A stretch of DNA of 64,000 nt, taken from positions 3,104,001-3,168,000 of the forward strand of contig OY969696.1 of the NCBI GenBank assembly GCA_963702005.1. The letters are read 5' to 3'. The stretch's first letter is position 1. Every line of letters begins with the position of its first letter. Under the pieces are notes generated by a model that ran no database searches, was not told where the DNA came from, and saw only the letters and a program-made list of their open reading frames with translations. Position numbers and translations under genes: made by a program. Of this stretch, positions 10,333 through 31,347 are shown in pieces. This DNA is from Candidatus Aminicenantes bacterium. GTDB lineage: Bacteria; Acidobacteriota; Aminicenantia; Aminicenantales; JAFGBC01.

Positions 10333-10992
10333 ATGCCTAAAAAGCTTGAGCAATTTGATACGGAGAAGGATGAGTGGTACAAACAGCCGAGGCTTTACAT
10401 AGATACGAAGAGCCTTGCCTATTCTCTTTACGAGGAGGGAACGGAGTTTAAATCCTTCCTTTCCAGGGACCTATCGAAAAAATTCGTCGATGGGCTTGAT
10501 TCGCTTCTCGACAACGGGAATAGCGAGAAAAAGGAAAGACTGAAGAAGCATAACGGCAACGGCTCTGACATGGGCGCGCTGCTAAAGTCGAACGGCAAGA
10601 TTAGGAAGCCGGTTATAAGCTTCTTCTCTGATAAGGCGCGGGTCCTTAGGGAAGAAATAGAGAAAATAAATCAGGACATGGAATCCAGAAAGGTAATACA
10701 CAGAGAAACGCAGCAAGACGTTTTTGCTGATTCGAAAGAGATCAAAAGGCTTCTCCAAGAAATCTCGCTGTATTCGCCTGGGACGAAACACTCGATTGAC
10801 CTGCGACGCATCGAGCTTGAGCGGGAGATGCTCGGCCTGCGGAAGGAATTGAGAATTTCGGGTCTCTCACTATGGAAAGATATCGTAATGCTCCGCCGCG
10901 AGCTCAGAGAAATAATCTTCGAATACCAGGCGCTAAAGCGCATGGCGGAGCTGGTCGAGAACGGAGGCGGGGCGCATGGCGTTTCAGGATGA
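10333..10992 (+). CDS. Coiled-coil hypothetical protein (partner of downstream ATPase)
   Basis: Charged helical ORF; ATG 10333 preferred over 10180; overlaps ATPase start. Confidence 0.7.
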   Translation: MPKKLEQFDTEKDEWYKQPRLYIDTKSLAYSLYEEGTEFKSFLSRDLSKKFVDGLDSLLDNGNSEKKERLKKHNGNGSDMGALLKSNGKIRKPVISFFSDKARVLREEIEKINQDMESRKVIHRETQQDVFADSKEIKRLLQEISLYSPGTKHSIDLRRIELEREMLGLRKELRISGLSLWKDIVMLRRELREIIFEYQALKRMAELVENGGGAHGVSG

Positions 10993-13021
10993 GATCGAAT
11001 CCCTTTTTCGCAAGCTTAAGCCGGTTCTGGGGAAGGATATCGATACCCTGTGGCTGGCTTACAATACTCAAACCGACCCGCGTTCGAGGGCAGAGATCGT
11101 CGGGATTCTGTTTTCCCTAGCTTCAAAGTATCTTGACGAGACATACGACAAGAAAGTTCTTCTAAGCCTGCCGGAGAAGGACAACATTTCTGGGGAATAC
11201 GAGCTCGGAAGGGTCGTTTACGGAGACCAGGAATATCATCCCTTTGGCCTACGCGAGAACGAATGGCTGAGGCACGTCGGCATATTCGGGACGACCGGCT
11301 CAGGGAAAACAAATTGCGCCTTTGTTCTTCTCTCTGTCCTACAAAAGATGAAGAAGCCTTTCCTTATCTTTGACTGGAAGAGGAATTATCGAGATCTTGT
11401 CGTCCTCGGCGATTTCTCCAGCCTGAAAATCTATACAATTGGCCGCGATACCTCTTCTCTCTTCTTCAATCCCCTGATTCCTCCTGCAGGGACGAAGCCG
11501 CAGGAGTGGCTGAAAAAGGTGATTGAGGTCATGTGCCATGCTTATTTCCTCGGCGAAGGCGTAGCTTTCCTCCTGCAAAAAGCGATTGACATGGCATATT
11601 CAGACTTCGGAGTTTATTCTGATTCGCCAGACGAATATCCGACTTTCAAAGACGTGCTTGCAATTCTTGAAAAGATGGAGGTCAAAGGCAGGAAGGCGCT
11701 GTGGATGGACTCGACGCTTCGAACGCTTGGCGTACTCTGCTTCGGCGAATTTGGCCGCGTCCTGAACGTGAGAAAGCCTTATCCGCTTGCCAATTTGTTG
11801 AAGGAAAATGTGATTCTGGAGCTCGATGCGCTGACGAATTCCGACAAGACGTTTTTCATCGAGGCGCTGCTGCTGTGGATTCACCATTACAGGCTCTCGG
11901 AGGGCGAAAGAGAGGTTTTCAAGCACGCGATTGTCATTGAAGAAGCTCATCACATCCTGCTTCGTAAAAAGCAGGAAATGACAGGAACGGAAGCGATAAC
12001 GGACATCATCCTTCGAGAGATCCGTGAGCTCGGCGAAGCGATAATCCTGATTGACCAGCATCCATCGCTTATTTCTCTGCCGGCGCTTGGAAACACATAC
12101 ACGACCATTTGCTTCGGCCTGAAGCACAGGGCGGACATGTATACGATAAGCGAATCATTGCTTCTCGAAAAGGACCAGGTCGATTTCCTGGGCCAGCTTG
12201 AAACGGGCCTGGCCATCGTCAAGCTCCAGGGCCGCTACTTCAAGCCCTTCCTTGTGCGCTTCCCTCTGTTTCCCATACGGAAAGGCGTCGTTTCCGATTC
12301 CGACCTTCTGAGGCGGAATGGAAGTCATTTGCAAGAAAGCGAGGTTGTCAGGCTCAAGCGCGGCCTCGACGGGCTTGTCAGGTCGCTTGAAGGTTTGGTT
12401 AATAAGGAGGGGGCGGAGGTTGTTTTAACTGAAGATGAGAGGCGATTCCTAGCGGACATCGCCAGAAATCCGATATCGGGCGTCGTTGCACGATATGCGA
12501 GGATAGGGATAAACAGATATCAGGGAAATCATATCCAGGGAAAGCTCCTTGAGAAAAAGCTTATTTCCTGGAGGCCTGTTGCCACCAGGAAAGGCCGCCT
12601 AAAGGTGTTCGTGCTGACGGACGAGGGGAAGAAAGCGATTCCCGACGTTCGCGTCGAAAAGGTCTTCCATAAGGCTGGAAGTTTCGAGCATGAGTCGGCG
12701 AAGCTTAAGGCCGGCGAGCATTACAGGCGGAAAGGCTACGCCGTGACCTACGAATATAAGCTCCCTGGCGGGCGGGCGGTGGACGTCGTCGCTGAGAAAG
12801 ACGGGAAGAGGATAGCGATAGAAATTGAGACGGGCAAAAGCGACTCGCTTTATAACATCAGGAAGGATCTGGAGGCGGGGTTTGAGGAGGTGCTGGTCAT
12901 CGCACTCGATAAAAGAACGAAGGATTCAATTGAGCGGGACACGAATAATCTCGATATTACTTTCCCACATCGCAAAAAGGTGATTATTGCGTCTGAAACC
13001 GTTGTTCAGAACTTAATCTGA
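10976..13021 (+). CDS. HerA/VirD4-like (DUF87) ATPase fused to wHTH and PD-(D/E)XK nuclease-like domain
   Basis: GTTGSGKT, FDWKRNY, IVIEEAH, LIDQHP; C-terminal VDVVAEKDGKRIAIEIETGKS. Confidence 0.85.
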   Translation: MAFQDEIESLFRKLKPVLGKDIDTLWLAYNTQTDPRSRAEIVGILFSLASKYLDETYDKKVLLSLPEKDNISGEYELGRVVYGDQEYHPFGLRENEWLRHVGIFGTTGSGKTNCAFVLLSVLQKMKKPFLIFDWKRNYRDLVVLGDFSSLKIYTIGRDTSSLFFNPLIPPAGTKPQEWLKKVIEVMCHAYFLGEGVAFLLQKAIDMAYSDFGVYSDSPDEYPTFKDVLAILEKMEVKGRKALWMDSTLRTLGVLCFGEFGRVLNVRKPYPLANLLKENVILELDALTNSDKTFFIEALLLWIHHYRLSEGEREVFKHAIVIEEAHHILLRKKQEMTGTEAITDIILREIRELGEAIILIDQHPSLISLPALGNTYTTICFGLKHRADMYTISESLLLEKDQVDFLGQLETGLAIVKLQGRYFKPFLVRFPLFPIRKGVVSDSDLLRRNGSHLQESEVVRLKRGLDGLVRSLEGLVNKEGAEVVLTEDERRFLADIARNPISGVVARYARIGINRYQGNHIQGKLLEKKLISWRPVATRKGRLKVFVLTDEGKKAIPDVRVEKVFHKAGSFEHESAKLKAGEHYRRKGYAVTYEYKLPGGRAVDVVAEKDGKRIAIEIETGKSDSLYNIRKDLEAGFEEVLVIALDKRTKDSIERDTNNLDITFPHRKKVIIASETVVQNLI

Positions 13022-14689
13022 CATTGTCCTTACAGCAGTCTCCCTTACCCCGGCTAATCGCGCAGAAATCTCGTTCACGCATCGACCTAACCTAATCGGA
13101 ATTGCCTTGCCTTCTTTAAACTTCACTAGCGCATCTCTATCGTCTCGATATTCGTTTAATTGTGAGTGATCTTTGATATAGCTTTCTAAAACTAGGCAAT
13201 AAGGCGCTGCTTGTCTGTTATCCACATCTAGGTCGGCGAGCTTTTCAATAGCATGAGCCAAATAGTTTATCAGTAGGCAGTGTTCTTGATCGCCAACGAA
13301 ATATACGTCGCCTTCCCCCACTCCAGCCCTCGCCTGAAAACGGAAGGGATCTTCAGAAATTGAATCCAGCATAAGCAGATGATACATCGAGAGTGCTGTC
13401 GAAAACATGCAACCTGAGAAATTATCGAAATAAGCGGAAAGCTTGTCGCCCGCATTTTCTTCTTTGGGTGAAATCTTGCCCCCGAACAGAATTGACCAGT
13501 TCTTGGGGACTGCGGTAATCCGCTTAAACCATTCATGGTATTTCCTCAGGACGGGAGAGGAAATATTCCTCGTCAAGAAATCCAGAATATAGGAACTCTT
13601 CTTAATGTCATAAAAAGATATATGACTCCGGGGACTTTCGTATCCCATGACATTTCGCTGATGAGCCAAGAAATAAGTGAAATCGAATTTTCCAAGCAAA
13701 GCCCTGTTCCATAGACCCACTTCGTCCAATATCTTTTGAAGAGTGCCTATCAGCACGTCGTCGGCAGGCACTTTTTCTCTAAGGGCGCATGACTTTAGCT
13801 CATGCATAGAAATTAAAAGACTTTCCAACTCCTTAAGCATTGCGCTCTTAGAAATTCCCGGTTCGGGAAATAGCTTCATCTGCCTGGAAAACTCCATAGT
13901 GAGGAGCCTAATGACCTCCCACGTCTTCAACAGGTAAGAGGATACGCCTTCAACGAGATCGTATAGAATCGAATCAGGCGGAAACGTGCGCACTCTAGCC
14001 AATAAATTCTTCCTCAGTATTGATTTTATGCCACTTCCCAAGCGCTCTTTTATCAACCCCGAACTTTTTAGCAATGCTATTTTTTCTTTGAGCGAACCGA
14101 CGGTATCTGTTATTTTCTTATCCGTCTCTTGTTTGCGTCTTTCTATGGTTTCCGGTTTTTGAGGCCGCTCAAGATAGAACGTCTTCCTTACGTAATCGTA
14201 TATATCGCTGGCTATTATCTCCAAATCGCCTATAAGAAAACTCATCCCGCCATCGTCATTCCTGAACATGTCAATAAATGTCAGGTTGGAAAGCCCTCCT
14301 TCGGTTTTCCAGATGTCGATTAATTCGGCGATTGTGCTTTCGTATTGGAACAAGTACGCCTTTGTTCTGAGAATGTCGATTTTGTTCATAAACCTATCAG
14401 TGTATGTAAAAGCTGTTCCATCGCCAGTGGTTTCCTTGTCATAATAACGTGATTCGAGCGATTCCAGAACGAGAGGAGGCCTTTCTACGACCAGAAAATT
14501 GGGTTGCCATAGATTGACGGAGCCTCGCCGGAAGATCTTGGTATCCATGTATTCTATGGATACATTCAAAATATTTCGAGAAATGGAGAGCATTTTCTCT
14601 ACGGCACCAAGGGGAACTTTCTTCTCTCCCTTCAATCTTTCCGATGTATAGGAAGTCAGTGCAATGAATTCGGTAATTTGATTTTCCAT
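13013..14689 (-). CDS. Hypothetical helical protein (558 aa)
   Basis: Long ORF 10 bp downstream of PRTase gene; no recognised motif. Confidence 0.7.
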   Translation of the reverse strand: MENQITEFIALTSYTSERLKGEKKVPLGAVEKMLSISRNILNVSIEYMDTKIFRRGSVNLWQPNFLVVERPPLVLESLESRYYDKETTGDGTAFTYTDRFMNKIDILRTKAYLFQYESTIAELIDIWKTEGGLSNLTFIDMFRNDDGGMSFLIGDLEIIASDIYDYVRKTFYLERPQKPETIERRKQETDKKITDTVGSLKEKIALLKSSGLIKERLGSGIKSILRKNLLARVRTFPPDSILYDLVEGVSSYLLKTWEVIRLLTMEFSRQMKLFPEPGISKSAMLKELESLLISMHELKSCALREKVPADDVLIGTLQKILDEVGLWNRALLGKFDFTYFLAHQRNVMGYESPRSHISFYDIKKSSYILDFLTRNISSPVLRKYHEWFKRITAVPKNWSILFGGKISPKEENAGDKLSAYFDNFSGCMFSTALSMYHLLMLDSISEDPFRFQARAGVGEGDVYFVGDQEHCLLINYLAHAIEKLADLDVDNRQAAPYCLVLESYIKDHSQLNEYRDDRDALVKFKEGKAIPIRLGRCVNEISARLAGVRETAVRTMSD

Positions 14690-14698
14690 TTCTTGTCG

Positions 14699-16036
14699 CT
14701 AGAGATAAAGACGGACGGTGCCCGCCTCCGACATCCTGTAGCTTCTCTTGGCCTCGTGTGCGCCATTGCGTTGACGAACATCAAACATCGGGCTGCAGTA
14801 CCCATAATCATTCAGAACTTCGACGCCAATCGAAACCTCAAGCCGAGATCGTCCTGTTTGCTCCGTCAGTTCCCCAATATCTCTTCCGACAGATTTCCAA
14901 AAGTACAGATTCTTTTCAGATTTGTTTTCCTCGCGATAGTTGGAATCAAGGACCCGCATGAGATCCTTTGTCAAAGATTGAATGTCATCCGGATAGACAG
15001 CATCGCCGGTTGCATCGTCCTTTAATAATATAACATTCGCCTGATTATCTGCACTCCCCGCATAAGACTTCCACAAGCTTTCCAATTCGATGGCGACGCG
15101 TTTTCCGAAATATTGTTCCAAACGGGGCATCTCCATGCGGAAGTCCGTAAGAGCTATTCCGCACTTGCCTATGTCCGAGATCAAGTTCCGCGCCTGCCTT
15201 AATCGCGTAGAAAGCGAGAAGCTCTCATAGAGATTCCTCGTCTTTACTTCTCCGTCTTGCCAGGGTTTTGACAGGATTTTTTCGGATTCTCTCCAAAGCG
15301 GATCAGAAACGCTAAGGTCGGGAGCGATGAGCAGCGAAGGGAAGTATTGTGCAGAAATCCTCATCACATGCCCGCTCGCATCTACATTGAAGCGAATCTT
15401 ATTTGAGCATGAATCCCTCGCGATTCTAGTATCCACTTCAGGAGACCAGGAGGGATAATGCACGCTCCAAGTCTTGCACATGGGGTGGCGCTTATACTCT
15501 ACGACGTAACCAGCGTATTTCGATATATCAAGAAGCGCCTCTGCACTATCGTTATCTCGCAAGTAAGCCGAGAATAAAAGGTGATCGGGATTCGACGGCC
15601 TGAACTTAAGTGAAAGCTGTGATAATTCCTCTATGAGATTCTCAAGTTGCTCTTTCTTCAGAATCGTCGAGAAATTTATGCCGTCTATGTGTCTATATTC
15701 CCTAGCTTCTTCGCTGTCGAACAACGCAAATGCATATTTGCCTACGTCGCTCAGACCTTTTTTTGCTAAGTCGTTGGCGAGTGCATTTATCGTTTTACCT
15801 GTAAAAACCGCATCGTCGATGATTGCCGCCCTTTTTCCATTAATTTCTTTTGGCTCAAGGAAATCAATGGCTCTACTATACATAATTTTCGGTCTTGAAT
15901 GATCTAGAGACGAAATTACTTCATTGAGAACGAGCGCTCCCTTCGATTCAATCGGGATAATGAAATCATAATTTTGGGATAGTACCTCTGATTCCAAGAA
16001 CTCCTTGAACTGAGGAAAAAGCTCCGACATATTCAT
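14699..16036 (-). CDS. Phosphoribosyltransferase-domain protein with probable C-terminal wHTH
   Basis: PRPP-binding loop AAIIDDAVFTGKT; C-terminal IGELTEQTGRSRLEV. Confidence 0.75.
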   Translation of the reverse strand: MNMSELFPQFKEFLESEVLSQNYDFIIPIESKGALVLNEVISSLDHSRPKIMYSRAIDFLEPKEINGKRAAIIDDAVFTGKTINALANDLAKKGLSDVGKYAFALFDSEEAREYRHIDGINFSTILKKEQLENLIEELSQLSLKFRPSNPDHLLFSAYLRDNDSAEALLDISKYAGYVVEYKRHPMCKTWSVHYPSWSPEVDTRIARDSCSNKIRFNVDASGHVMRISAQYFPSLLIAPDLSVSDPLWRESEKILSKPWQDGEVKTRNLYESFSLSTRLRQARNLISDIGKCGIALTDFRMEMPRLEQYFGKRVAIELESLWKSYAGSADNQANVILLKDDATGDAVYPDDIQSLTKDLMRVLDSNYREENKSEKNLYFWKSVGRDIGELTEQTGRSRLEVSIGVEVLNDYGYCSPMFDVRQRNGAHEAKRSYRMSEAGTVRLYL

Positions 16037-16119
16037 TGAAATATTCCCTTCGTTTTATAAAAGCATATTCTCCCGCCCCGTTACTGAAGTGGACACTGAT
16101 GTCTAGATTATCCAACGAT

Positions 16120-17373
16120 TTAGTCGTTGTCAAGAACGGCGTCCCGTCCAGGCACGATAAAAGCCAAGACGCTCAGAATGAGCTCTCTGTTCGGGTCGTC
16201 CGGTTGACGAAGGACAAAGCGGAATTCCGTCTCACCCGTCCTGCCTACGTCTCTCTTATAGCAAGCATGAGCCCGGACGACATCGGGTATTTTCGCTAAA
16301 ACGTCGCTAAACCTCTTCCCCCGGTAAAAAAGAATGATCGCCGTCTTAGTGTCCCTCCAGCTTGCGTAACCGAGGATTTGATCGATGGTTTCGGAAAAGG
16401 CTTTTTCGCCTTTCCAGAATTTGCACTCTGCGATGAAGGCATTCCTGCCTTCGTGCCTGATAAGGATGTCGGTTTTGCCGCTGTAATTAAATGTTTCGCC
16501 CGTTGCGGCGCCTTCATATTGGGCGTTGAGCTGGATGAGAAAGTGCTGGCGCAAATCTTCTTCCTTCATGCCCTCAAAAGCGCTCGGACTCCTTTCAAGC
16601 ACCAAAGCCATGTTCTTCACGATGGACAGAATGTTTTCGTATTCGGCCATTTCCAGGGCGGGCTCTGGAGCAAACGGCTTGCTTGTTGCCGTCGGCCTTG
16701 CTATTCTTGGCTTTCTCTTTACCTCAGGTATAGCATACGTCCTAGGCATGTCTTCACGCTTCCTGACGGGAATGCCAAGTTTCTCTACCAAATCGAGGTC
16801 CTTTAGTATCTTCCGCTTGCGCAGCCTGAATGCCTCCCGTATGAAAGGCTCAAACTCTTTGTTGAAGCCTTCTATGTTGCTCCTGACCCAGCCAAGATAT
16901 TGCTGAATGTCGCTGATCCTTCTTGATATCTCTTTTCCCAGCTCCTCGGCGTTCGGTTCAGTTTGCTGATAAACGAGGCACACTTCCTGGCCGACGACTT
17001 CTCCTCGCGGAGGGCTCATGGTGTAGGGGCTCGGAGTATATTTAAAGAACGTGCCGTCTCCGCTGAACGGAACCGAAACAGTCAGCGTGACGCCTTTGAC
17101 ATAGCACGGACGGCTCCTGTCAAAAACGGCTCTCATCCTGTCCTGGCTGACGTCGATGTCCACGTCGGAGGGCGCAGAAATGCACTTGTTATCCGGGTCG
17201 AGGATTGGGGGTTCGATCGAATACTTGTCCGCAAAATGCCTGACGAAGTCTTCCTCGCTCGAATTCAGAAGAGAGTTCGTCTCGATGGCCTCGACTTCTT
17301 TCTTTGCATGCTCCTTGACCGCCTCAATATAATCCCTCAATTCCCCATGGCCATAAAATAGAAGCTCCTGCAT
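16120..17373 (-). CDS. Protein with C-terminal PD-(D/E)XK restriction-endonuclease-like domain
   Basis: EEDLR...GKTDILIRHEGRNAFIAECKFW; ATG at 17373. Confidence 0.75.
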   Translation of the reverse strand: MQELLFYGHGELRDYIEAVKEHAKKEVEAIETNSLLNSSEEDFVRHFADKYSIEPPILDPDNKCISAPSDVDIDVSQDRMRAVFDRSRPCYVKGVTLTVSVPFSGDGTFFKYTPSPYTMSPPRGEVVGQEVCLVYQQTEPNAEELGKEISRRISDIQQYLGWVRSNIEGFNKEFEPFIREAFRLRKRKILKDLDLVEKLGIPVRKREDMPRTYAIPEVKRKPRIARPTATSKPFAPEPALEMAEYENILSIVKNMALVLERSPSAFEGMKEEDLRQHFLIQLNAQYEGAATGETFNYSGKTDILIRHEGRNAFIAECKFWKGEKAFSETIDQILGYASWRDTKTAIILFYRGKRFSDVLAKIPDVVRAHACYKRDVGRTGETEFRFVLRQPDDPNRELILSVLAFIVPGRDAVLDND

Positions 17374-17584
17374 TAGATGCCTCTTGCCTAATCTCATTTG
17401 AAAGATAGCAATATAAACGATGCGAGTCAATTTGAAACATGCTGCATTCCCGTCTTCAGATAGGTGCCCCGGATGCCGGCGGCAACTTTATAAACCCGCT
17501 TGACCATAATTTAATCAATTATTCTCGCTAGCGTTCCGCAAGGGACGTTAGAAAATATCCGCTATAGCTTGACGAGGGCTTGGA

Positions 17585-18154
17585 ATGGACAAAGTCGCGG
17601 TTTTCATTGACAACGGCTATTTCAAGAAGATACAGGACCATTTCAAAACGAGGGTAGATTACGAAAAGTTCTCGAACGAGATAGTCGGCCCCGGTTTCGA
17701 GCGGTTCAGAACCTACGTATACGATTGCCCGCCGTATCAGTCCAATCCGCCCATTCATGAGCAGTCGGTAATGAAGTCCCAGTTCGACTCGTTCAAGTAC
17801 AACATATCCCGCCTGCCCAGATTCGAATTCCGGACGGGCAGGCTCCAGCTCCTCAGGGATTCGAACGGGAACGTCATCATGAATGAAAACGGTTCTCCGG
17901 AATTCAGGCAGAAGGGGGTCGACATGGCCCTCGGCATCGACACAGCGAAACTTTCAAGCAAAGGTACGGTGCAAAAGATCATCATAGTGGCCGGAGACAG
18001 CGATTTCGTCCCCGCCATCATAGCCGCCAAATCAGAAGGCGTTCTCGTCACCCTATATTATTCCCAAATCGGCTACATTCACGACAGCTTGTACGAAGCA
18101 TGCGATGACCGGATAGAGTTAACGAAAGCGCTGTTCGAGAAATGCAAGCGATAA
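17585..18154 (+). CDS. NYN/LabA PIN-like RNase
   Basis: VFIDNGY, QKGVDMALGID, AGDSDFVP, ACD. Confidence 0.92.
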   Translation: MDKVAVFIDNGYFKKIQDHFKTRVDYEKFSNEIVGPGFERFRTYVYDCPPYQSNPPIHEQSVMKSQFDSFKYNISRLPRFEFRTGRLQLLRDSNGNVIMNENGSPEFRQKGVDMALGIDTAKLSSKGTVQKIIIVAGDSDFVPAIIAAKSEGVLVTLYYSQIGYIHDSLYEACDDRIELTKALFEKCKR

Positions 18155-18220
18155 GGCGCGTTCCCGGCGTGCCGAGGCCGCCGCGGACGTTTGCCAGATT
18201 AGGCGGCTTTTTTCTTGCTT

Positions 18221-21598: not shown

Positions 21599-23794
21599 AT
21601 GAACAATCATTCAAAAGACGCAGATTATCTAGATAAGATAAGACAGGCTCATGATCACGCTCTTCAGGAAAAAGAAACGATAAAGAGAAAGATTGAAACC
21701 GCTATTTCCGATATAGATGTAATTGAATTACTAGCGCATATTGCATTTATCTCACAATACGTTCCCGAGAATGACCACACTATTAATCAGAGTATGCGGG
21801 AATACCCTTCTCTGCATTATTTAGCCGGGTTATCCTTGAAACAGCATCTCGTTAGCACAAGGCCTCCGGAAAATCGGGAGGTCGAAGCCATCTCAGAAGA
21901 CGTCAACCGATATTTCATTTCATATATGCAGGATATAACCCTACAAAGCTTTAAAAAAGAAAAGGCATCAGACGAGGACGGATTAATCCTTCAAGCTAGA
22001 ATCCAAAAAATGTTACGGCAGACAAGTGCGATGATGTATCCGTTCCAAGTAGAAACCCTAATTCATGGCTTATTCTCTCAATTTGATGAGTATTTCTTGA
22101 CAAAGGCTGGCTTCAGAGCGTCCACGGCCCTAGAATTCGGTACGAAAATAATCAAGCGGTATGAAAGGATGGCCAATAATAGATATGAAGAGGTGGGATC
22201 AGCAAGAAAGAGGGCCGCTGAAGAATTAAAAGATCCTGTCAAAGGGTCAGCTATCAGAGCGACTATGGCCGATTCTTTATCAGATGAAGACTTGCTAACT
22301 TCCTATACGGCCTTCTTATTGTTCACTAACATCAAAGAAATGTTTCTTTTCAATCCGGAATTGCTATGTAGGGAAGAAGGTATTTCGGATTCGTCAGAAT
22401 TCGCCAATTATGTGAATGCTCTAAGTTGCGAATTCGGTTCAAATCAAGATTTTAATGATCCGCTTGATAGCAACATCATATCCATCAAGCCATTCATTAA
22501 GGTAAATGGCGACGCCTTTTTTGTTCCAATATTTCAGGACTTGATCCATAATCTTCCGCTTATTCTGGAATCCCTCCTTGAACAAGATAAGTTAGCACAA
22601 TCAGGGATCTGGCAGAGATACCAATCTAGCCGAGCTAACTTTATCGAGGGCCGAATTTGCGATTTTCTTTCCAGGTTGTTTCCCAATGCAAACATATTTA
22701 GGAATGTAAAATATGTTTATCAGGGGAACGAATGCGAAGCGGATATTATCGTCCTTTATGACAACAAAATATTTTTAGTTGAAGCAAAAGCGGGCTCTTT
22801 TAGAGAACAGGCGCAACGTGGAGGAATCGAAAGCCTAAAGAAGGACCTAAAGAAACTGATCGAGGAGGCATATCAGCAAGGGAGGAGGACAGCCGCTTAT
22901 CTAAAATCAAATGAAATCTCGACTTTTTCGTATTCCCAAGGCAATAAGATTTTGGAGATTAAACAAAACAATCAGACCACATTCATCATAGGGGTTACTC
23001 TAGAGCCCCTCATGAGCCTCGCTATCGGCTTGAAGAATCTTAGGTCGTTGGGGCTTTTCATTGAAAATGAGTATCCGTGGTCAGTTCAAATCAATGAACT
23101 GGATTTAGTTACGCGCCATCTTCCTTCTCCGACTATTTTTATTCACTACTTAGAAAGCCGTCTTCGGGCCATAGACGAAAATGTTTTTCATGCCTACGAC
23201 GAACTTTCGTTTCTTGCCTGGTATCTCAGAAAAGGGAACTTTTTAGTTCCATATGACAAGGACGACAAACAGCCAAATCTTTTGGAGATCGGGTCCGATT
23301 GGACAACGCCCTTCGATGAGCATTATCTCTTTGGTAAGGAAAAGCCGGAACTAGACATCGAAGATGATTTGCTAAAAATCATACGCATCTTAGAATATCT
23401 AAATCCGATTGGCTACTCGGACATCGCAAGCGCGCTCTTAGATTTCGACCATGAAGCAAGAAGACTAATCATCGCGAAGATTAACGACTTAATATCGTTA
23501 TCGAAAAGCGACCGGGAACCTCATGATTTTTCCGTAATCTATAAGGAAGATTTGGATACCGGCCTTAGCTTCATGACACTTGTAGGGAGAGACGGATTAA
23601 AAGAGCGTCTGGGCTCCTACTGTGCCTTGAAAAAATACCAAACTAAAACAAAAAGATGGCTCGGATTAGGACGAGATGTTCAGGATGACAGATGGTTTGT
23701 AAATGATTTCGCTTATTTCAATTTTCCTTGGGAACTCAATTCAAAAATGGACGAATTGCTCCGCGCTTTTCCCATGAGGGATAAAAGCACATAA
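21599..23794 (+). CDS. NERD/PD-(D/E)XK nuclease-domain protein
   Basis: ECEADIIVLYDNKIFLVEAK...AYQQ. Confidence 0.8.
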   Translation: MNNHSKDADYLDKIRQAHDHALQEKETIKRKIETAISDIDVIELLAHIAFISQYVPENDHTINQSMREYPSLHYLAGLSLKQHLVSTRPPENREVEAISEDVNRYFISYMQDITLQSFKKEKASDEDGLILQARIQKMLRQTSAMMYPFQVETLIHGLFSQFDEYFLTKAGFRASTALEFGTKIIKRYERMANNRYEEVGSARKRAAEELKDPVKGSAIRATMADSLSDEDLLTSYTAFLLFTNIKEMFLFNPELLCREEGISDSSEFANYVNALSCEFGSNQDFNDPLDSNIISIKPFIKVNGDAFFVPIFQDLIHNLPLILESLLEQDKLAQSGIWQRYQSSRANFIEGRICDFLSRLFPNANIFRNVKYVYQGNECEADIIVLYDNKIFLVEAKAGSFREQAQRGGIESLKKDLKKLIEEAYQQGRRTAAYLKSNEISTFSYSQGNKILEIKQNNQTTFIIGVTLEPLMSLAIGLKNLRSLGLFIENEYPWSVQINELDLVTRHLPSPTIFIHYLESRLRAIDENVFHAYDELSFLAWYLRKGNFLVPYDKDDKQPNLLEIGSDWTTPFDEHYLFGKEKPELDIEDDLLKIIRILEYLNPIGYSDIASALLDFDHEARRLIIAKINDLISLSKSDREPHDFSVIYKEDLDTGLSFMTLVGRDGLKERLGSYCALKKYQTKTKRWLGLGRDVQDDRWFVNDFAYFNFPWELNSKMDELLRAFPMRDKST

Positions 23795-23862
23795 TTCTTT
23801 ATTCGCACAAACCGCATCCTCCCTCCTCAATCCTTTTCTTCCCCCCTGCCTTCCTACTTCCC

Positions 23863-23976
23863 ATGGATTACAGAAAACTTGACGAGCTCCCCGCCTGGGT
23901 CAAGCTCGTGAACAGGCTTCTTCATGGCCAGGAGACTCTTGAAGACGTCAGGCCATACAGGGAGGCGAAGGGATGA
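23863..23976 (+). CDS. 37-aa hypothetical protein
   Basis: MDYRKLDELPAWVKLVNRLLHGQETLEDVRPYREAKG; ATGA overlap with next ORF. Confidence 0.45.
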   Translation: MDYRKLDELPAWVKLVNRLLHGQETLEDVRPYREAKG

Positions 23977-24194
23977 ACGAGATCCACATTCTGGATATAA
24001 GGATTATTGGAGCTGGAATAGTTTTCATAGCCTTTGCGCTGATCGTGGTTGCTGGATTCGCGCTCGGCCCTTATCTTGAGGTGGTTTCTCCTTACGATGG
24101 AAAGCTTTTGATAATTGCATCTTCGATTTCTCTTGGGGTCATGATTGCCACTGCCTGTTTCATAATCTACTCTATGTTCAAACGCAAAGAATGA
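23973..24194 (+). CDS. Small two-TM protein
   Basis: Two hydrophobic helices; GGAGG SD. Confidence 0.65.
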   Translation: MNEIHILDIRIIGAGIVFIAFALIVVAGFALGPYLEVVSPYDGKLLIIASSISLGVMIATACFIIYSMFKRKE

Positions 24195-25522: not shown

Positions 25523-26083
25523 TTAATCTACCTTCTTTTTTCCCAAATAAGGAAACCCGCAAAAAAAACAACGGACTTTTTCTGTCCAATCTTCGCGTAT
25601 TTTAATCTTCCGCTTGCAACAGGGCAATTCAACTATTTCCATATCATTTGTTTCGGGAGAGATCCAAGGCTCCTCCATTTTCATTTCTTGCGCATCAATT
25701 TTTATTGAAAATAATCCAGACGAAGACCCGCCGAAATTTCTCTTCAACGGCCTGATAAGTTCTTCGTTGATTATTCTATTCGCTAGGTTTTTCGCAAAGA
25801 CGCCGATATAAGCCATTTGTTCATCGGTCCACCAATTACTGGCCGCGGACACTTGCCCGCAATAAGGGCAGAAGAATTCTGGCTCGGGCTTTCCACCCTC
25901 TTCTTGTTTAACTTCATCAGCTTTATTATCGAGCATAAAGTTCTCGACTCCCTTTTTAGCCAGGTTTTCGAGTTCTTTCTCATCAAGCAATACTTTGAAC
26001 TCCCTCCGGCATAAAGGACACAGCCTGCGGAAAAATCTTTCATCGTCCGTAGGAAGAGGAACACTCATTTCAATGTGGCTCAT
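25523..26083 (-). CDS. Multi-zinc-ribbon protein
   Basis: CPLC, CPYC, PCC, CFFC; overlaps upstream Abi_C gene. Confidence 0.75.
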   Translation of the reverse strand: MSHIEMSVPLPTDDERFFRRLCPLCRREFKVLLDEKELENLAKKGVENFMLDNKADEVKQEEGGKPEPEFFCPYCGQVSAASNWWTDEQMAYIGVFAKNLANRIINEELIRPLKRNFGGSSSGLFSIKIDAQEMKMEEPWISPETNDMEIVELPCCKRKIKIREDWTEKVRCFFCGFPYLGKKKVD

Positions 26084-26864
26084 TTCCCGCTCCTTTTATT
26101 TGTACAAATCGCCTTATTATTGCGGTTGCCAGGCTTGAAGATATGTTAATGGCCAACTCCGCTATATATGCCGATGTCTGGGGCGGGAATTTCCCTTTTC
26201 CATGTGCGTCTCCAAGAACGTTTCGCAGACCCCCGAGATTGGTGATTAATCCCGTCAATGCATTTAGAACACGGGTCAGCTCTTCGCTTGCATCTATCTT
26301 ATCAAAATCAAGAAGTGCGCGAGTGGACTTCCATAAATCAGATAATTGTTTCTTCTCAGGCAAAGGCCTCTTGCATTCGTCATGACAAATTCGCATCGTA
26401 CTTTCGAGACAGCTTATGCTCCGAGTTACCGCATTTTCGAAATTTCCGTCCCTTATGGCCGTTCTTGCTTTCTCAATGTCCTGGAATGCGGCGAAAAATC
26501 CATGTTTTTCGAAGAGTCCTCTCGCTGTCGTCACGATTTGTCGAGTTGTTTCGGCGGTCGGCAATTCGCATTTTTTACAATAATCTAGATTCGTGTCTCT
26601 ACGCCGTATTTTGCAGAATAGGTTGTGAATGTGATACGCGTTATGCCTCCAGATTTGAATACTGGGAGTGATCGCGTCACAACCAACTTCTCTATATACC
26701 TTGCCTACGGGACATTCAAGGCAAATCTCCGCTGATACTTCGTTCGTATTGTGCTCCCCGCCGGTCTGTTTGGCCGCTCTACAAATCAGCGTCCCCATTC
26801 CGATTTCTTGAAGATGGCAACTTATGTCGTCTTGCTCGGAAGGTCCCTTTTTCTCATCAGTCAT
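26070..26864 (-). CDS. Abortive-infection C-terminal (Abi_C/HEPN-like) protein with Cys-rich N-terminus
   Basis: AVTRSISCLES, LGGLRNVLGDAHG, AELAIN. Confidence 0.75.
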   Translation of the reverse strand: MTDEKKGPSEQDDISCHLQEIGMGTLICRAAKQTGGEHNTNEVSAEICLECPVGKVYREVGCDAITPSIQIWRHNAYHIHNLFCKIRRRDTNLDYCKKCELPTAETTRQIVTTARGLFEKHGFFAAFQDIEKARTAIRDGNFENAVTRSISCLESTMRICHDECKRPLPEKKQLSDLWKSTRALLDFDKIDASEELTRVLNALTGLITNLGGLRNVLGDAHGKGKFPPQTSAYIAELAINISSSLATAIIRRFVQIKGAGNEPH

Positions 26865-26994
26865 TAAAAGCCCCTTTAATTGTTAATTCATACGGAATTA
26901 TATTCGTTTTCTCCCGTTTATTAAAGCCTCTTTAAAAGCATAATCCGCATTGCTTCTCGGCCAGACTTTAAAAGAGGTCTGTCAATCGGCATAC

Positions 26995-27144
26995 ATGAAT
27001 TCGGCGAATCCCCGGAAGACGGTCGCTTTCGCCTGTCCAGGCTGCCTGACGACATTCCATCTTTATATCTGGGAAATCGAGGAAGGCGCTCCGAAATGTA
27101 ACTACTGCATGATCCCCCTTGAGAGGGTGAAGAATCGGAGGTGA
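26995..27144 (+). CDS. Small zinc-finger protein
   Basis: CPGC...CNYC. Confidence 0.6.
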   Translation: MNSANPRKTVAFACPGCLTTFHLYIWEIEEGAPKCNYCMIPLERVKNRR

Positions 27145-27147
27145 AGG

Positions 27148-27612
27148 ATGAATCTCAACGAAATGAGTCATGAGAGGCAGGTGGGCTATCTGCGGTCGGT
27201 TTTGAGGTCGGGGAAAGGCACTCTGACGGGCTTTATGGCGCTGTTCGCGTTCCGCCATCATCTCGCATCGAAGCATTCGCCCGACTTCTCGCAGAGCCCG
27301 GTGCTGCGCTGGTATCTGGGCCAGCTCGCGAAGGAATACATCAAGCGCTACTACGCTGAAGCGAAGAGCACGCTGGAGAACTTCGCCGAGATCGGCCTGC
27401 TCGAAGCGAAGGGCGACGCCGAAGAGGTCCAGAGGGAATTCCGGCTGAACGAAGCTTTCTTGCCTGCCCTTCAGGAAGTGCTCGAAGAGATCTTCGGCAA
27501 CGAAACCGTCGCAGACGCAGTCGCCAGGGCCAAATACTACAGGGACCCTGCCTCGGCAAAGGAAAGGCCGCATGCTCGGAAGGATTTCAAGAATGCAGAG
27601 GTGGGAAAATGA
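27148..27612 (+). CDS. Hypothetical protein (possible wHTH)
   Basis: GGAGGTGA SD; coupled operon. Confidence 0.7.
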   Translation: MNLNEMSHERQVGYLRSVLRSGKGTLTGFMALFAFRHHLASKHSPDFSQSPVLRWYLGQLAKEYIKRYYAEAKSTLENFAEIGLLEAKGDAEEVQREFRLNEAFLPALQEVLEEIFGNETVADAVARAKYYRDPASAKERPHARKDFKNAEVGK

Positions 27613-28052
27613 AGGGCGAGATCGAGAAAATCTGGAAGAATGCGACAGCCGATGGTAGAAAATACAACGTCTTGCAGATAGGCGGCGTGCGCTATTCGCT
27701 TTGGGAAGGCGACTACCTGGACAAGCTGAGCGAAGGCCAGACGCTCGAATTCGACTTCCGCGAGAGCGGCGACTTCAGGAACATCAGCAAAATCTACGAC
27801 CCGGCGGGGGCCAAGAAACCGAGCGAGAACGACGCCCTGCCGCCGGAGCCTCCAGCAAACGACAATCAACAGGGCCAGAAGGCGCGCCAAATCGTGAGGA
27901 TGAGCAGCCTGCGTTCGGCCAGCCAGATCCTGAACGGGTCGAGAATCCCTGCCGGCGAGCGCGCCGAGAAGACGATAGAAATCGCGAAGAAGTTCGAGAA
28001 GTACATCGGCGACGAGGGCTTGGCGGACCTCGAAGATGAAAACAAGCCATAG
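27609..28052 (+). CDS. Putative OB-fold ssDNA-binding-like protein
   Basis: Beta-rich N-terminus (YSLW...GDFRNI), Pro linker, IVRMSSLRSA motif, acidic tail. Confidence 0.5.
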   Translation: MKGEIEKIWKNATADGRKYNVLQIGGVRYSLWEGDYLDKLSEGQTLEFDFRESGDFRNISKIYDPAGAKKPSENDALPPEPPANDNQQGQKARQIVRMSSLRSASQILNGSRIPAGERAEKTIEIAKKFEKYIGDEGLADLEDENKP

Positions 28053-28350
28053 GCTTTCGGAATTCGTGAAGTCCCTCGGACGATATGGACGGCCTGAGCC
28101 AGGCGAAGAGCTCTTGACCGAATATGGAAAGGCAAGGGTTTTGCGCGTCGTTCCCTATGAGGAAGTCGTCGAAGAGATGAGGAGAGACCTCGTCGCTAGC
28201 AAGGAAATCGAGCGCTTCGATTTGCGCGCCGAGCATTTCCTCGGAAAGAAGGACAAGTATTTCGAGGCCGAGCTTGCATATCCCGACGGCGAAGTCGAAC
28301 GAATCGACTGGAGCGAATACCTCGCCATGAAAAACAAAGGAAAAGGGTGA
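28036..28350 (+). CDS. Hypothetical protein
   Basis: Overlapping operon gene with backbone-like codon usage. Confidence 0.65.
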   Translation: MKTSHRLSEFVKSLGRYGRPEPGEELLTEYGKARVLRVVPYEEVVEEMRRDLVASKEIERFDLRAEHFLGKKDKYFEAELAYPDGEVERIDWSEYLAMKNKGKG

Positions 28351-28445
28351 TTTTACGGTCGCACACGAAAAAATCAGGTTAGGTGATCAGGAGTTCGCGG
28401 TCAGAACGAAGAAGGTTTATCAAAGAGACCTTACCTCAGACTGTT

Positions 28446-28630
28446 GGTCCGTCCAGGTTTGGGGCCTCCCCTACTGCTCGGGCTTCGGGAACCCTGAGGC
28501 GATGTGCGAGTTCCTGGCGACCGAGGAATGCGGAGGATACGGCGTCAGACGGAAGATCCTCAGGGGCAAATACCCCCTCCACGGCCTTCCTGACGCATCT
28601 TCGGGGGCCGGACCGTAGGGTGTGGGGAGT
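28446..28630 (+). ncRNA. Candidate structured RNA or ssDNA element
   Basis: Nested stems GGTCCG/CGGACC, GCGTCAG/CTGACGC, GGAAG/CTTCC, AGGGG/CCCCT, TTCCT/AGGAA. Confidence 0.45.
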
Positions 28631-28636
28631 AGAACC

Positions 28637-28879
28637 ATGAAAAAGGCCCGCATTTTCGTCCTGGTGAAGAATTTCGGGGGCGTCAACCACGACGCCGAGC
28701 TTTACTCCAGCCTCGCGGAGGCCAAGCGCGGCTTCGCCGAGTATACGGGCTTCGGCTATTCCAGAGAATATTGCGATCCCTGCTCTCCCAAGTACTCGGA
28801 AAAATTCAGCGAGACGAAGCTTTTCGAGCTCGATATGCCGGATTTCCTCAGGCCAAGGCGGACAAAGCAAAAAGGGTGA
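28637..28879 (+). CDS. Hypothetical protein
   Basis: GGGGAG SD; GTGA overlap with radC-like gene. Confidence 0.6.
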   Translation: MKKARIFVLVKNFGGVNHDAELYSSLAEAKRGFAEYTGFGYSREYCDPCSPKYSEKFSETKLFELDMPDFLRPRRTKQKG

Positions 28880-29400
28880 CTTATCTGGAAGGCGAGTATG
28901 AGAACGGCGGCATAAAGTCGATAAGGCAGAGGAGGCAGCGCAAGGACTCGTATTTCGACGGCTACGAATATCGCGGATACAAGGTCAAGACTAAGCTGGC
29001 CATCGAAGGACGCAGGGAATACAAGCCGCTGAAGCTTTCGAACTCTTCAGACGTTTTCGGCGCTTTCAGGAAGCTTCACGAGGCGGACAAGGAGAAGTTC
29101 TATTCCGTTCTCCTCGACACCAAGAACAAGGTCATAGGGGTTGACATGGTGAGCCAGGGCTCGCTGGAATCAGCTCCGGTCGCTCCCCGAGAAGTTTACA
29201 AGGCCGCACTTCTCGCATCCGCCGCTTCGGTCATATTCATTCATTCCCATCCTTCGGGCGAACCCGAGCCTTCCTCCGCCGACATAGAGCTCACCCGCCA
29301 GCTCAAGCAGGTCGGCCAGCTTATGGGCATCCAGGTGCTCGACCACGTGATCATCGGGCGCGGCAAGTTCTACAGCTTTGCGGACAAGGGGGAATTATGA
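28876..29400 (+). CDS. radC: RadC-like JAB domain protein
   Basis: EKFYSVLLDTKN, PREVYK, HSHPSG, PSSAD, LDHVIIG. Confidence 0.9.
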   Translation: MTYLEGEYENGGIKSIRQRRQRKDSYFDGYEYRGYKVKTKLAIEGRREYKPLKLSNSSDVFGAFRKLHEADKEKFYSVLLDTKNKVIGVDMVSQGSLESAPVAPREVYKAALLASAASVIFIHSHPSGEPEPSSADIELTRQLKQVGQLMGIQVLDHVIIGRGKFYSFADKGEL

Positions 29401-29621
29401 CCGGCGGCCTGCACGAAGTCCGGGTTCGCTTGCCCGGATTTAGGAGATACAAAGGATATTCCGACCTGATTGATACTTACTGCTGCTCGGCTACGTCATG
29501 CTACTATGTCGAGTTTCCCGCGCTCGGATACGAAGGCTACTTCCAGAAGTCGGACGTTGAAGTCAAAGAGGTGAGAATATCGAGTTCAGAAAAAAAGAAT
29601 TGTCGGTTGAAGAAACGATGA
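29397..29621 (+). CDS. Hypothetical protein
   Basis: ATGA-coupled on both sides. Confidence 0.55.
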   Translation: MTGGLHEVRVRLPGFRRYKGYSDLIDTYCCSATSCYYVEFPALGYEGYFQKSDVEVKEVRISSSEKKNCRLKKR

Positions 29622-29902
29622 AGCGCTATCCCAGGCTGACGGCGCATGTCATAGCCGAGTCGCTCGGCTACGCCACTCCATCGTGCGCTGCACGCATTCT
29701 GAAAGACGCGAGGGAGAGGAAGGAGAACTACTGCGAGTGGATCGACGCCTGCTACGGCGGCGACCCGCTTCCTGCGGTAAAGAACGCGATAAGGAACAGG
29801 CACACGCACAGCGGTTTCATGGCCGAATACAAGCTCGCGCTGGCGCTCGTGCGGAAGGCGCTCGAAACAAGCGACGAGCCGGTCTTTGCGAGCTGGTTTT
29901 AA
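29618..29902 (+). CDS. Hypothetical protein
   Basis: Coupled operon gene. Confidence 0.65.
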   Translation: MKRYPRLTAHVIAESLGYATPSCAARILKDARERKENYCEWIDACYGGDPLPAVKNAIRNRHTHSGFMAEYKLALALVRKALETSDEPVFASWF

Positions 29903-30078
29903 TGAAGAGAATCAATCTGACTTTCGACGATATCGAACCTCTAGAACGAGCATTAAACAAATACGCTTCCATGGGAAGCGGCCTAGTCTTTTACAAGGGC
30001 GAAGGCTGGGACTGGAGGATGGCCAGGTATGCCCTGGAGGACTTGAAGGCGCGCAGGGATGGAGAAAAGGGACGCTGA
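29902..30078 (+). CDS. 58-aa hypothetical protein
   Basis: TAATG coupling; MKRINLTFDD... Confidence 0.55.
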   Translation: MKRINLTFDDIEPLERALNKYASMGSGLVFYKGEGWDWRMARYALEDLKARRDGEKGR

Positions 30079-30124
30079 AATTCCCTTCATGGCGAGCCGG
30101 TTTTATAGCGAAAGAGGTGGGAAA

Positions 30125-30415
30125 GTGACAAAATTCGATACGGATGGGAAGCATTTATATATCGACGGCAAGAAGGTCCTGCGCGGCTGGGAGTCGTTCT
30201 CTGGCTGGTACTGGTTCGCTACTGAAAAAGCGAACGAGCAGATGAGCGACCTGGGCGACGGCAAGCCGGTCAAGGACACGATTTATTTCGGCCTGGTCCA
30301 GGGTCTTGAGGAGGAATGGGGCTACTTCTCCCAGGCGGAAATCGAGAGCCTCAGGCCGAAGACGTGGGAAATCCCGAAGAAGAATTTGCCTTATTCGGGA
30401 AGACGTAGCAATTAA
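30125..30415 (+). CDS. DUF2958-like protein
   Basis: GWYWFATE...YFGLVQGLEEEWGYFSQAEI. Confidence 0.7.
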   Translation: MTKFDTDGKHLYIDGKKVLRGWESFSGWYWFATEKANEQMSDLGDGKPVKDTIYFGLVQGLEEEWGYFSQAEIESLRPKTWEIPKKNLPYSGRRSN

Positions 30416-31345: not shown

Positions 31346-31347
31346 TA

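Follow-up and report, generated by a model that had tools for sequence, protein, structure and literature searches.

A 64,000-base stretch of the genome of a Candidatus Aminicenantes bacterium (assembly GCA_963702005.1, contig OY969696.1, bases 3,104,001-3,168,000; hereafter the window) harbors a set of genes arranged around one for an Orc1/Cdc6-type AAA+ protein. Orc1/Cdc6 is the initiator of archaea and eukaryotes, whereas bacteria use DnaA. In order, the set comprises a coiled-coil protein, a HerA/FtsK-type ATPase with winged-helix and nuclease-like domains, the Orc1/Cdc6-type protein, a Xer-like tyrosine recombinase with a zinc ribbon (Int) and an OB-fold protein (s147) within a cluster of small genes. 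This backbone order recurs in dozens of loci, and the element in the window is a member of a horizontally spread family of integrative islands that combine a fixed backbone with cargo hotspots. An original prediction, made from the bare sequence, had described an archaeal-type integrative element at 10333-30415. Its coiled-coil, HerA ATPase, NYN, Orc1/Cdc6, zinc-ribbon integrase and small-gene-cluster assignments were all recovered at the positions listed in Table 1.

The host is a bacterium, as its genome is a single contig of 4,309,361 bases that carries bacterial small-subunit rRNA (1579.9 bits), bacterial large-subunit rRNA, two tRNAs in the rRNA spacer and a full-length DnaA (550.5 bits); the placement of the element in a bacterial genome thus holds. 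GC content is 38-52% in the element region and 60.4% genome-wide. Assembly chimerism is unlikely, because the genome is one contig, a second, diverged copy of the element lies 3 Mb away and matching contigs occur in three metagenome runs, 99.8% identical to the element over 2 kb. Among the bacterial markers originally named, the tRNA-Arg fragments, IS110 and SBBP genes were found, and an IS200 gene was absent from the open reading frames (ORFs) scanned, a non-exhaustive set.

The Orc1/Cdc6-type gene is the most conserved gene of the island family. Its product matches Cdc6_lid (PF22703, 1.6e-13) along with AAA_16, AAA_22 and AAA in Pfam; its score against TIGR02928 is a marginal pass (182.2 bits, cut-off 181.3), and the four PRK00411 ORC1-type models (one subfamily, three equivalog) are far under their cut-offs, with for example 137.9 versus 354 bits. 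A profile of 16 family members aligns colinearly to Sulfolobus Orc1-1 (2qby_A residues 4-347, 7.4e-52) and to Aeropyrum ORC1 (2v1u_A residues 3-357, 1e-41), with no large gap, and the colinearity with these solved structures extends from the N-terminus into the winged helix. The Walker A, Walker B and GDAR sensor-2 motifs are invariant in the 16 sequences (G53, G56-T60, D131-E132, D224, R226, A228). Given the colinearity and the invariant ATPase motifs, the 344-residue window protein has the canonical Orc1/Cdc6 architecture, with no inserted domain. Longer, fused forms were not found at an E-value of 1e-10 or below, in a search that constitutes weak evidence.

Upstream of it, the coiled-coil ORF can be read from 10180, yet in homologues the start corresponds to about residue 52. 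Clustering placed a homologue immediately upstream of HerA in 16 loci, and BLAST recovered 21 ORFs in that position; the protein has no assignment in Pfam, PHROG or the Atlas. The best NCBIfam model for the HerA-type ATPase is CedD (6.8e-28), at 97.6 bits and far under the 600-bit cut-off. Its C-terminal 212 residues, modelled from 27 sequences (pLDDT 85.6), form a winged helix followed by an alpha/beta domain. Foldseek matched the model to VC1899 (best, 1.2e-4), AF1548, Cdn1, Bax1, EndoMS and Can2, which comprise CARF-nuclease and other PD-(D/E)xK proteins, and also to MarR-type regulators with a winged helix-turn-helix (wHTH). Across 26 sequences, residues E571/H572, D603, E616, E618-T-G and S622 show no or almost no variation. 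HerA carries in this part a PD-(D/E)xK-like nuclease domain with conserved catalytic-type residues. By eye, no transmembrane stretch was noticed in HerA or in the coiled-coil protein from residue 52.

The integrase contains the R...HxxR...Y-type catalytic motifs (CRIGE, RHSRAT, YVHL), and its structural relatives are archaeal XerA proteins (PDB 4a8e, 5hxy). An identity as an XerA/Xer chromosome-resolution recombinase was rejected, as its scores fall under the equivalog cut-offs (XerA_Arch 110.1 versus 220, XerD 92.7 versus 329.6, XerC 85.3 versus 335 bits) and it has an additional C-terminal zinc ribbon. Relatives of about 395 aa number 3648. Linked to Int is the OB-fold protein s147, with homologues in 24 distinct ORFs. 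A model from 18 sequences (pLDDT 75.7) displays a five-stranded OB barrel, a disordered linker, a helical hairpin and an acidic tail. The best fold matches are proteins of the single-stranded-DNA-binding OB type (LEF-3, RPA, Rim1, SsbA/B, PriB), all of them weak (E of at least 0.01); in the Atlas s147 matched viral hypothetical clusters only (score 0.94), and in PHROG phrog_993 at 3e-4. A second, short tyrosine recombinase, Int2, stands at the left of the element and has similar genes in five related loci.

Table 1. Coordinates of the element and its neighbourhood (window positions; copy B is the second copy in the same genome)
Feature	Position	Strand	Evidence or remark
Int2, short tyrosine recombinase, 207 aa	5194-5817	+	Pfam Phage_integrase 1.9e-25; leftmost gene common to copy B
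Left variable cargo: 310-aa protein, TPR protein (7506-9008, -), Ser/Thr kinase-like protein (8998-10065, -)	6016-10065		Pfam
TTATCCGCA box	10260-10268	+	exact match; upstream of the coiled-coil/HerA unit by about 70 nt
Coiled-coil protein, about 219 aa	10333-10992	+	overlaps the HerA start by 17 nt
HerA/FtsK-type (DUF87) ATPase with winged helix and PD-(D/E)xK-like nuclease domain	10976-13021	+	Pfam DUF87 1.4e-11
Hotspot 1: 558-aa protein, PRTase-like gene, PDC-S54 candidate defence gene, NYN, small ORFs	13013-19307
PDC-S54	16120-17430	-	PADLOC 1.8e-155
NYN	17585-18154	+	Pfam 7.2e-14
Tandem 9-mer boxes TTATCGGCA TTTCTGGCA	19523-19540	+	upstream of the Cdc6-type gene by about 63 nt; between motifs GTTTAAAC / GTATAAAC
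Orc1/Cdc6-type AAA+ protein, 344 aa (AAA+, lid, C-terminal winged helix)	19586-20620	+	Pfam, NCBIfam, profile alignment
Inserted cassette with 242-aa hydrophobic protein (20647-21375)	20621-21459	+
Relic of the Cdc6-type gene 3' end	21460-21520	+	encodes LVRWDRALVRGKVRVFRPTD and the stop
NERD-domain protein (731 aa) and 73-aa membrane protein	21599-24194	+	NERD 3.7e-6
Int, Xer-like tyrosine recombinase with C-terminal CxxC zinc ribbon; 394 aa when read from the second ATG	24263/24338-25522	+	Phage_integrase 1.6e-20
186-aa CxxC protein and AbiJ-like/Abi_C protein	25523-26864	-	Abi_C 2.7e-11; PADLOC AbiJ 3.7e-9
Small-gene cluster: 64-aa Zn protein, s154, s147 (OB-fold), s104, RadC/JAB, 74 aa, s100, s118	26950-30415	+
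RadC/JAB	28771-29400		RadC 7.4e-42
Right-hand cargo: two ParB-like genes, DUF6602, PAPS-reductase-like gene, methyltransferase, NERD-like gene	30500-38682		not common to copy B
Eco57I/MmeI-type methyltransferase, 987 aa	33728-36691	-
NERD-like	37221-38354	-
140-nt block, rightmost shared sequence	38857-38996		86% identical to copy B, genome 166402-166541
tRNA-like relic	39121-39209	-	ARAGORN tRNA-Leu(taa); no tRNA in the window by Rfam
IS110-family transposase	52128-53165

Distribution and descent of the family

Relatives of the Cdc6-type protein number 327 at an E-value of 0.001 or below among 8000 candidates scored, and their source names are Aminicenantes bacteria, "bacterium" and one Helarchaeota metagenome-assembled genome (MAG). 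In the species-genome collection (GTDB), 28 loci were identified: 26 in bacterial MAGs of at least 12 phyla and two in Aenigmatarchaeota. The bacterial hosts belong to Eubacteriales, Armatimonadota, Chloroflexia, Dehalococcoidia, Acidobacteria, Thermoanaerobaculia, Pirellulales, Sedimentisphaerales, Binatia, Proteobacteria, Deltaproteobacteria, Syntrophobacterales, Ignavibacteria, Zixibacteria and Bacteroidetes, and two are unclassified bacteria. BLAST of the window ORFs against these 28 loci recovered Cdc6 in 27, HerA in 17, Int in 14, s147 in seven and the coiled-coil protein in six (16 by clustering). The homologues keep order and orientation, and the same gene order appears in metagenome loci, of which 80 from about 170 relatives were examined; the search for syntenic backbones in MAGs that had been advised at the outset thus yielded them. 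Association with one integrase family and the s147 cluster is maintained in this order down to about 40% Cdc6 identity. Within the same genus or order, none of 40 genomes contained the Cdc6-type gene, and across phyla the family occurs patchily.

Linkage was counted over 92 non-redundant loci, after removal of 11 exact duplicates, and only where the relevant flank reached at least 5 kb. Of the 32 loci with sufficient upstream sequence, 23 have HerA upstream of the Cdc6-type gene and two have it downstream instead; of the 43 with sufficient downstream sequence, 22 have an Int of at least 35% identity to that of the window downstream of Cdc6. Both flanks were available for 26 loci, 11 of which contain HerA and Int, nine HerA only, two Int only and four neither. 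Both archaeal loci are among these last four: the two Aenigmatarchaeota loci have neither HerA nor integrase within 10 kb. An example of Int without HerA is L098, where 10 kb were available on either side. HerA and Cdc6 are separated by 102-6777 nt and Cdc6 and Int by 214-8713 nt; both gaps are insertion hotspots. The Cdc6 gene block itself is 87-98% identical among elements with differing flanks, with breakpoints about 217-254 nt past the stop codon in four loci.

The descent of the Cdc6-type protein was analysed in a maximum-likelihood tree of 31 rows, comprising 22 GTDB loci, the two copies of this genome, three named database proteins and four Cdc6 proteins of haloarchaeal plasmids and viruses; L014, which has an internal stop, was left out. 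The family forms a clade of its own (100/100), separate from the haloarchaeal plasmid and virus Cdc6. Within the clade host phyla are scrambled, and every one of the three rows from archaeal MAGs is nested among bacterial ones. The island family is thus mainly bacterial and not a recent import from archaea. As the tree is midpoint-rooted only, it is compatible with a deep archaeal origin, which the Cdc6-type gene may have had. The nearest characterised relatives of the backbone proteins are archaeal (Sulfolobus Orc1-1, Aeropyrum ORC1, the XerA structures and HerA/CedD). Of the archaeal-type integrative element initially put forward, the mobile integrative unit with an Orc1/Cdc6 gene and archaeal nearest characterised relatives stands, and the archaeal character of the family does not, given that 26 of 28 loci are bacterial. 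The further proposal of a cross-domain archaeal element is contradicted by the Cdc6 phylogeny; nesting of backbone proteins in bacterial clades, which had been named in advance as the outcome that would speak against it, is what the tree and the 26 of 28 loci display.

Outside genomes and metagenomes, seven halovirus records among 50,697 phage records matched the Cdc6-type protein. A viral element was considered and rejected, IMG/VR having returned only four distant matches of 26-33% identity. On plasmids of Halobacterium noricense (L122) and Halococcus dombrowskii (L125), a short Cdc6, the haloarchaeal version closest to that of the window, is followed by an annotated PD-(D/E)XK nuclease; these pairs may be an archaeal counterpart of a coupling between Cdc6 and a nuclease.

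Second copy and island ends

By tBLASTn of the backbone against the genome, a second, diverged copy (copy B) was located at genome 129-167 kb, about 3 Mb from the window copy (copy A). Protein identities between the two are 72% for Int2 (genome 129247-129864), 76-79% for the coiled-coil protein, 76% for HerA, 59% for Cdc6, 63% for the NERD protein, 42% for Int, which is inverted, 63% for s154, 74% for s147, 69% for RadC and 56-86% for the other small genes. The sequence common to both copies stretches in the window from Int2 (5194) to 30415 and resumes in a 140-nt block. The extent originally assigned therefore falls within the conserved unit, which is itself wider, reaching from Int2 at 5194 to 38996, and lies in a 64.7-kb island. 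Just beyond the block lies a tRNA-like relic, of which only the 3' 49 nt match elsewhere (genome 1659761-1659809), about 550 nt from the real tRNA-Leu(taa) gene; it is probably what is left of an old attachment (att) site where the shared backbone ends on the right.

Island A is bounded by perfect 45-nt direct repeats at window positions -22335 to -22291 (negative numbers lie to the left of the window) and 42357-42401 (minus strand), 64,692 bases apart. The repeat consists of the 5' half of tRNA-Arg(tcg) plus 4 nt, and the full tRNA-Arg gene lies at -24218 to -24145 on the minus strand. Integration that duplicates the 5' half of a tRNA is unusual. Perfect repeats likewise bound island B; they are 43 nt long, derive from the 3' part of tRNA-Val(cac) and lie 77,941 bases apart, at genome 89489-89531 and 167430-167472. 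In L061 and L064/L065, tRNA-Val(cac) stands directly upstream of family elements in the same orientation. Both islands are composite, and the left 27 kb of island A contain, besides sugar genes, a phage-type integrase and a further HerA-like gene. In neither copy is the region upstream of Int2 connected with the right end by direct repeats. The tRNA repeats were found to have no degenerate internal copies, and no tRNA was detected within 10 kb of the 23 GTDB loci scanned. Two genomes of the same genus, G001 and G002, are in 370-500 repeat-rich contigs, and in G001 a tRNA-Arg 5' half adjoins the conserved left flank.

The tRNA loci are themselves rich in further copies. tRNA-Arg(tcg) is an insertion hotspot, with 5'-half copies at -22331 to -22291, 42361-42401, 46276-46316 and 49648-49688; the additional halves mark off mini-islands of 1.8, 3.9 and 3.3 kb, and near genome 3071836 (region 3071836-3081709) there is a displaced 3' half from another version of tRNA-Arg. 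Three more partial tRNA-Val copies lie downstream of island B (172172, 175167 and 177157), and the arrangement at genome 89457-177200 (loci L038-L041) suggests a tandem accretion of small islands at tRNA-Val(cac). To the left of the backbone, window -12947 to -6346 (L037:7053-13654) encodes a phage-type integrase and a distant HerA-like ATPase (24% identity; weak TraG, AAA_10 and FtsK P-loop matches), adjoined by a radical-SAM gene, and may be another integrated element.

Families of type IV secretion systems (T4SS), capsids and relaxases were absent from the ORFs scanned with Pfam and NCBIfam between window -20 kb and 42 kb, in agreement with the original prediction. An integrative conjugative element was rejected for lack of a T4SS or relaxase match in the scanned ORFs, which gave only weak P-loop matches to TrwB, VirB4 and TraG.

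Boxes, gene relics and cargo

At least one TTATCSGCA box (at most one mismatch) is present in 54 of 72 distinct regions upstream of the Cdc6-type gene. Most boxes lie at -54 to -82, often in tandem and flanked by motifs of the GTTTAAAC / GTATAAAC type, and only four of about 100 are on the other strand. In 16 of 32 distinct loci the box also stands upstream of the coiled-coil/HerA unit on the forward strand, its positions being clustered; in five of the 32 it occurs on the opposite strand. Because the same box precedes both, the Cdc6 and coiled-coil/HerA units look co-regulated. The box is one base off what we take to be the DnaA-box consensus.

Downstream of the Cdc6-type gene, a 49-nt direct repeat (88%) of its last codons lies 902 nt away and brackets the ORF of the 242-aa protein. 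Contigs from three sediment-metagenome runs of three studies join 20569 to 21472 without this cassette, 29 letters fitting both sides. Relative to the window, they differ at 33 of 677 nt on the left (95% identity) and at four of 2030 nt on the right (99.8%). Relics of the Cdc6 3' end, made up of its last 54-108 nt, lie 0.33-6 kb downstream of an intact gene in seven distinct elements: the window (repeat-to-relic span 20564-21520), copy B (genome 142917-142993), L002 (12384-12452 and 13293-13355), L043 (3606-3665), L046 (10617-10670), L057/L059 (L057:13467-13574) and L069 (14728-14799). An integron-like cassette platform is disfavoured, since the left edges of the relics vary (54-108 nt) and synonymous sites at the 3' end are not unusually conserved in 82 genes; accretion driven by homology between related elements is favoured over a dedicated att site as the probable origin of the pattern. 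As a lesser novelty, though an unlikely one, the conserved Cdc6 3' end could be a landing pad for gain and loss of gene cassettes.

Three cargo hotspots were identified, between HerA and Cdc6, between Cdc6 and Int and 3' of the small genes, and in the window they are filled with defence-type genes. The hotspot 1 genes (among them NYN, PDC-S54 and the PRTase-like gene) have no homologue in the related loci, so that NYN, initially counted among the backbone genes, drops out of the backbone. Neither the AbiJ-like gene nor the right-hand ParB/PAPS-reductase/methyltransferase block has counterparts there. The NERD protein and the 73-aa membrane protein (88% identical) are present in copy B, and otherwise a partial match occurs in L063 only. 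The left cargo is not common to copy B, except for the kinase ORF and part of the intergenic stretch 6995-7157: the kinase ORF matches a 1,259-aa, non-syntenic ORF there weakly and locally (30% over 117 aa), and part of the stretch matches elsewhere in region B as a repeat. From this comparison of loci, the NYN, PDC-S54, PRTase-like, NERD, AbiJ-like and restriction-modification genes are cargo.

At 30500-33653 the two ParB-like genes, DUF6602 and the PAPS-reductase-like gene stand in a row, followed by the methyltransferase on the other strand; the row presumably resembles IbrA/IbrB- or DndB/DndC-like DNA-modification modules. Farther right, two DUF7948/SBBP paralogues of 710 aa each (49767-51899 and 53474-55606) lie on either side of the IS110-family transposase gene. 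A 50-nt stretch at 10155-10207 resembles the start of an IS110-type transposase gene (MNYAGIDHH...); it is single-copy in this genome, and in four sediment metagenomes its coverage is very deep, with loose ends to either side.

Possible roles of the module

We tentatively favour a role of the module in maintenance of the element, to which we would give slightly less than an even chance. The Cdc6-type protein would be an initiator-type, box-binding AAA+ protein acting with Int and the OB-fold protein, and the HerA-nuclease a co-regulated DNA motor. In such a scheme, the integrase would move the unit into and out of tRNA anticodon-loop sites, and the Cdc6-type protein, as the sequence-specific DNA-binding AAA+ protein of the element itself, would recognise the TTATCSGCA boxes before its own gene and before the coiled-coil/HerA unit. 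It would then act as an initiator-type loader in maintenance or replication of the excised element, aided by the OB-fold protein in the manner of a single-strand-binding protein, while the co-regulated coiled-coil/HerA-wHTH-nuclease motor would process or pump DNA. A more specific version, in which an Orc1/Cdc6-type initiator in bacteria binds the boxes and loads the HerA-type hexameric motor of the element instead of MCM, replicating or mobilising the excised island, we consider unlikely; if true, an archaeal-style initiation module would have spread through more than ten bacterial phyla. The "novel replication/transfer module" of the original prediction is possible.

Several observations weigh against a maintenance role. 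Repeats bounding the backbone alone were not found in this genome, where the tRNA repeats bound composite islands that contain other recombinases. No terminal overlap, as expected of a circular contig, was seen in any of the metagenome loci of at least 3 kb among the 80, and a close relative is absent from IMG/VR and from 72,556 plasmids, among which the only matches, of about 30% identity, are haloarchaeal replicons. Just one or two boxes precede the Cdc6-type gene and they overlap a promoter-like stretch, an arrangement that resembles an operator more than an origin possessing an unwinding element. A Pfam profile search of the host genome found no convincing MCM, and the classical client of Orc1/Cdc6 is thus absent from the host; the best match is partial (35.6 bits), and the model is unspecific, matching all 14 control genomes including E. 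coli, so that this absence rests on weak, partial scores. HerA is linked to Cdc6 more often (25 of 32 loci) than Int is (22 of 43), and both this stronger linkage and its nuclease domain with conserved catalytic-type residues fit a published defence reading.

According to that reading, which we hold to be quite possible though on balance doubtful, the coiled-coil/HerA-wHTH-nuclease unit and the Orc/Cdc6 ATPase would be a defence or competitor-exclusion system of the "HerA/FtsK capture" type carried on an integrative element. The Cdc6-type protein would localise the complex on DNA, and the HerA motor and nuclease would intercept invading DNA, with no replication role. Mobile neighbourhoods with HerA/FtsK, an Orc/CDC6 ATPase, a wHTH and an active restriction endonuclease (REase) are described by the Aravind group (NAR 2024; PMC10853773, accessible part of the text), where an anti-invader function is predicted, and the accessible part of PMC12839542 says that HerA/FtsK and Orc/CDC6 occur together recurrently. 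The same four domains, HerA/FtsK, Orc/CDC6, wHTH and an REase-fold nuclease with conserved residues, are found in the window. In addition to the HerA-Cdc6 linkage and the boxes common to both upstream regions, the short Cdc6 of two haloarchaeal plasmids (H1, H7) adjoins annotated PD-(D/E)XK nuclease genes; the lack of a convincing MCM in the host and of plasmid or circular forms, and the defence-type character of the neighbouring cargo, point the same way. However, the published class, as given in the accessible part of PMC10853773, "invariably" has an inactive REase between the AAA+ core and the wHTH of Orc/CDC6, an insert which the 344-aa window protein lacks, and that part of the text mentions neither an integrase nor a fixed synteny with a zinc-ribbon recombinase and an OB-fold protein as observed here. 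No PADLOC model matches the coiled-coil protein, HerA or Cdc6 beyond weak P-loop matches. A fixed order with one integrase family and s147, kept to about 40% Cdc6 identity, and the existence of loci with Cdc6 and Int but no HerA are atypical of a free-moving defence operon, and up to 6.8 kb of foreign genes separate HerA from Cdc6.

The Cdc6-type ATPase could alternatively act as regulator or target selector of the neighbouring tyrosine recombinase, much as TnsC, MuB and IstB do for transposases. Cdc6 and Int are often merely 214-580 nt apart and co-oriented, and the Cdc6-type protein matches a PHROG "DNA transposition protein" at 3.2e-8; yet Orc1/Cdc6 proper matches far better, an Int is within reach in only the 22 of 43 loci, and we know of no tyrosine recombinase that needs such an AAA+ partner. 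The Tn7 and Mu ATPases are placed in the same clade in the accessible text of PMC10853773. Taken with these objections, we judge a selector role to be improbable. Least of all do we expect a recent cross-domain transfer of an archaeal element, or a faulty join of an archaeal contig with bacterial DNA, which we regard as very improbable: although the nearest characterised homologues are archaeal and three family members come from archaeal MAGs, the genome loci are nearly all bacterial (26 of 28), the archaeal rows nest within bacterial ones with haloarchaeal Cdc6 in a separate clade, the archaeal loci have no backbone, the genome is one contig with a second copy and bacterial tRNA-derived repeats bound the island.

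The family can be set beside several known systems. Haloarchaeal Orc1/Cdc6 plasmids and viruses (SNJ2, BJ1, LSV-48N) likewise carry a Cdc6-type gene on a mobile replicon (26-37% identity over 85-99%), but they form a separate clade of circular replicons in archaeal hosts with MCM, whereas the window family is integrated, resides in bacteria and has a HerA-nuclease and an integrase family of its own. Bacterial tRNA-integrated defence islands and integrative mobilisable elements share the type of recombinase, tRNA-derived repeats, deviant GC, absence from relatives and defence cargo at hotspots, and differ in that the window backbone has an Orc1/Cdc6-type protein in place of a Rep/primase or relaxase. 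Integrative conjugative elements of actinomycetes have a similar minimal set of Int, Rep and FtsK-like TraB with a wHTH, but TraB is membrane-anchored and has no nuclease, and Rep is of the rolling-circle type. A HerA-clade ATPase also takes part in DNA exchange in Thermus ICETh1 "transjugation", where TdtA is a HerA-like ATPase for DNA donation (accessible parts of PMC5365140 and PMC7767461), and in the Sulfolobales Ced system, whose CedD has a transmembrane domain (accessible part of PMC11868833); the score of the window HerA is far under the CedD cut-off.

The HerA/FtsK-Orc/CDC6 association itself is already in print. In the main text of openly available papers, a full-text search turned up no bacterial integrative element that is based on a canonical Orc1/Cdc6 gene. 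Should the Cdc6-type protein replicate the element, the family would provide a route for archaeal-type initiation inside bacteria; should the module serve in defence, it would be an integrase-linked variant of the predicted "capture" systems in a simple three-gene form. Either way, the island family is a vehicle that carries defence genes (PDC-S54, NERD, AbiJ-like and restriction-modification candidates) through sediment bacteria.

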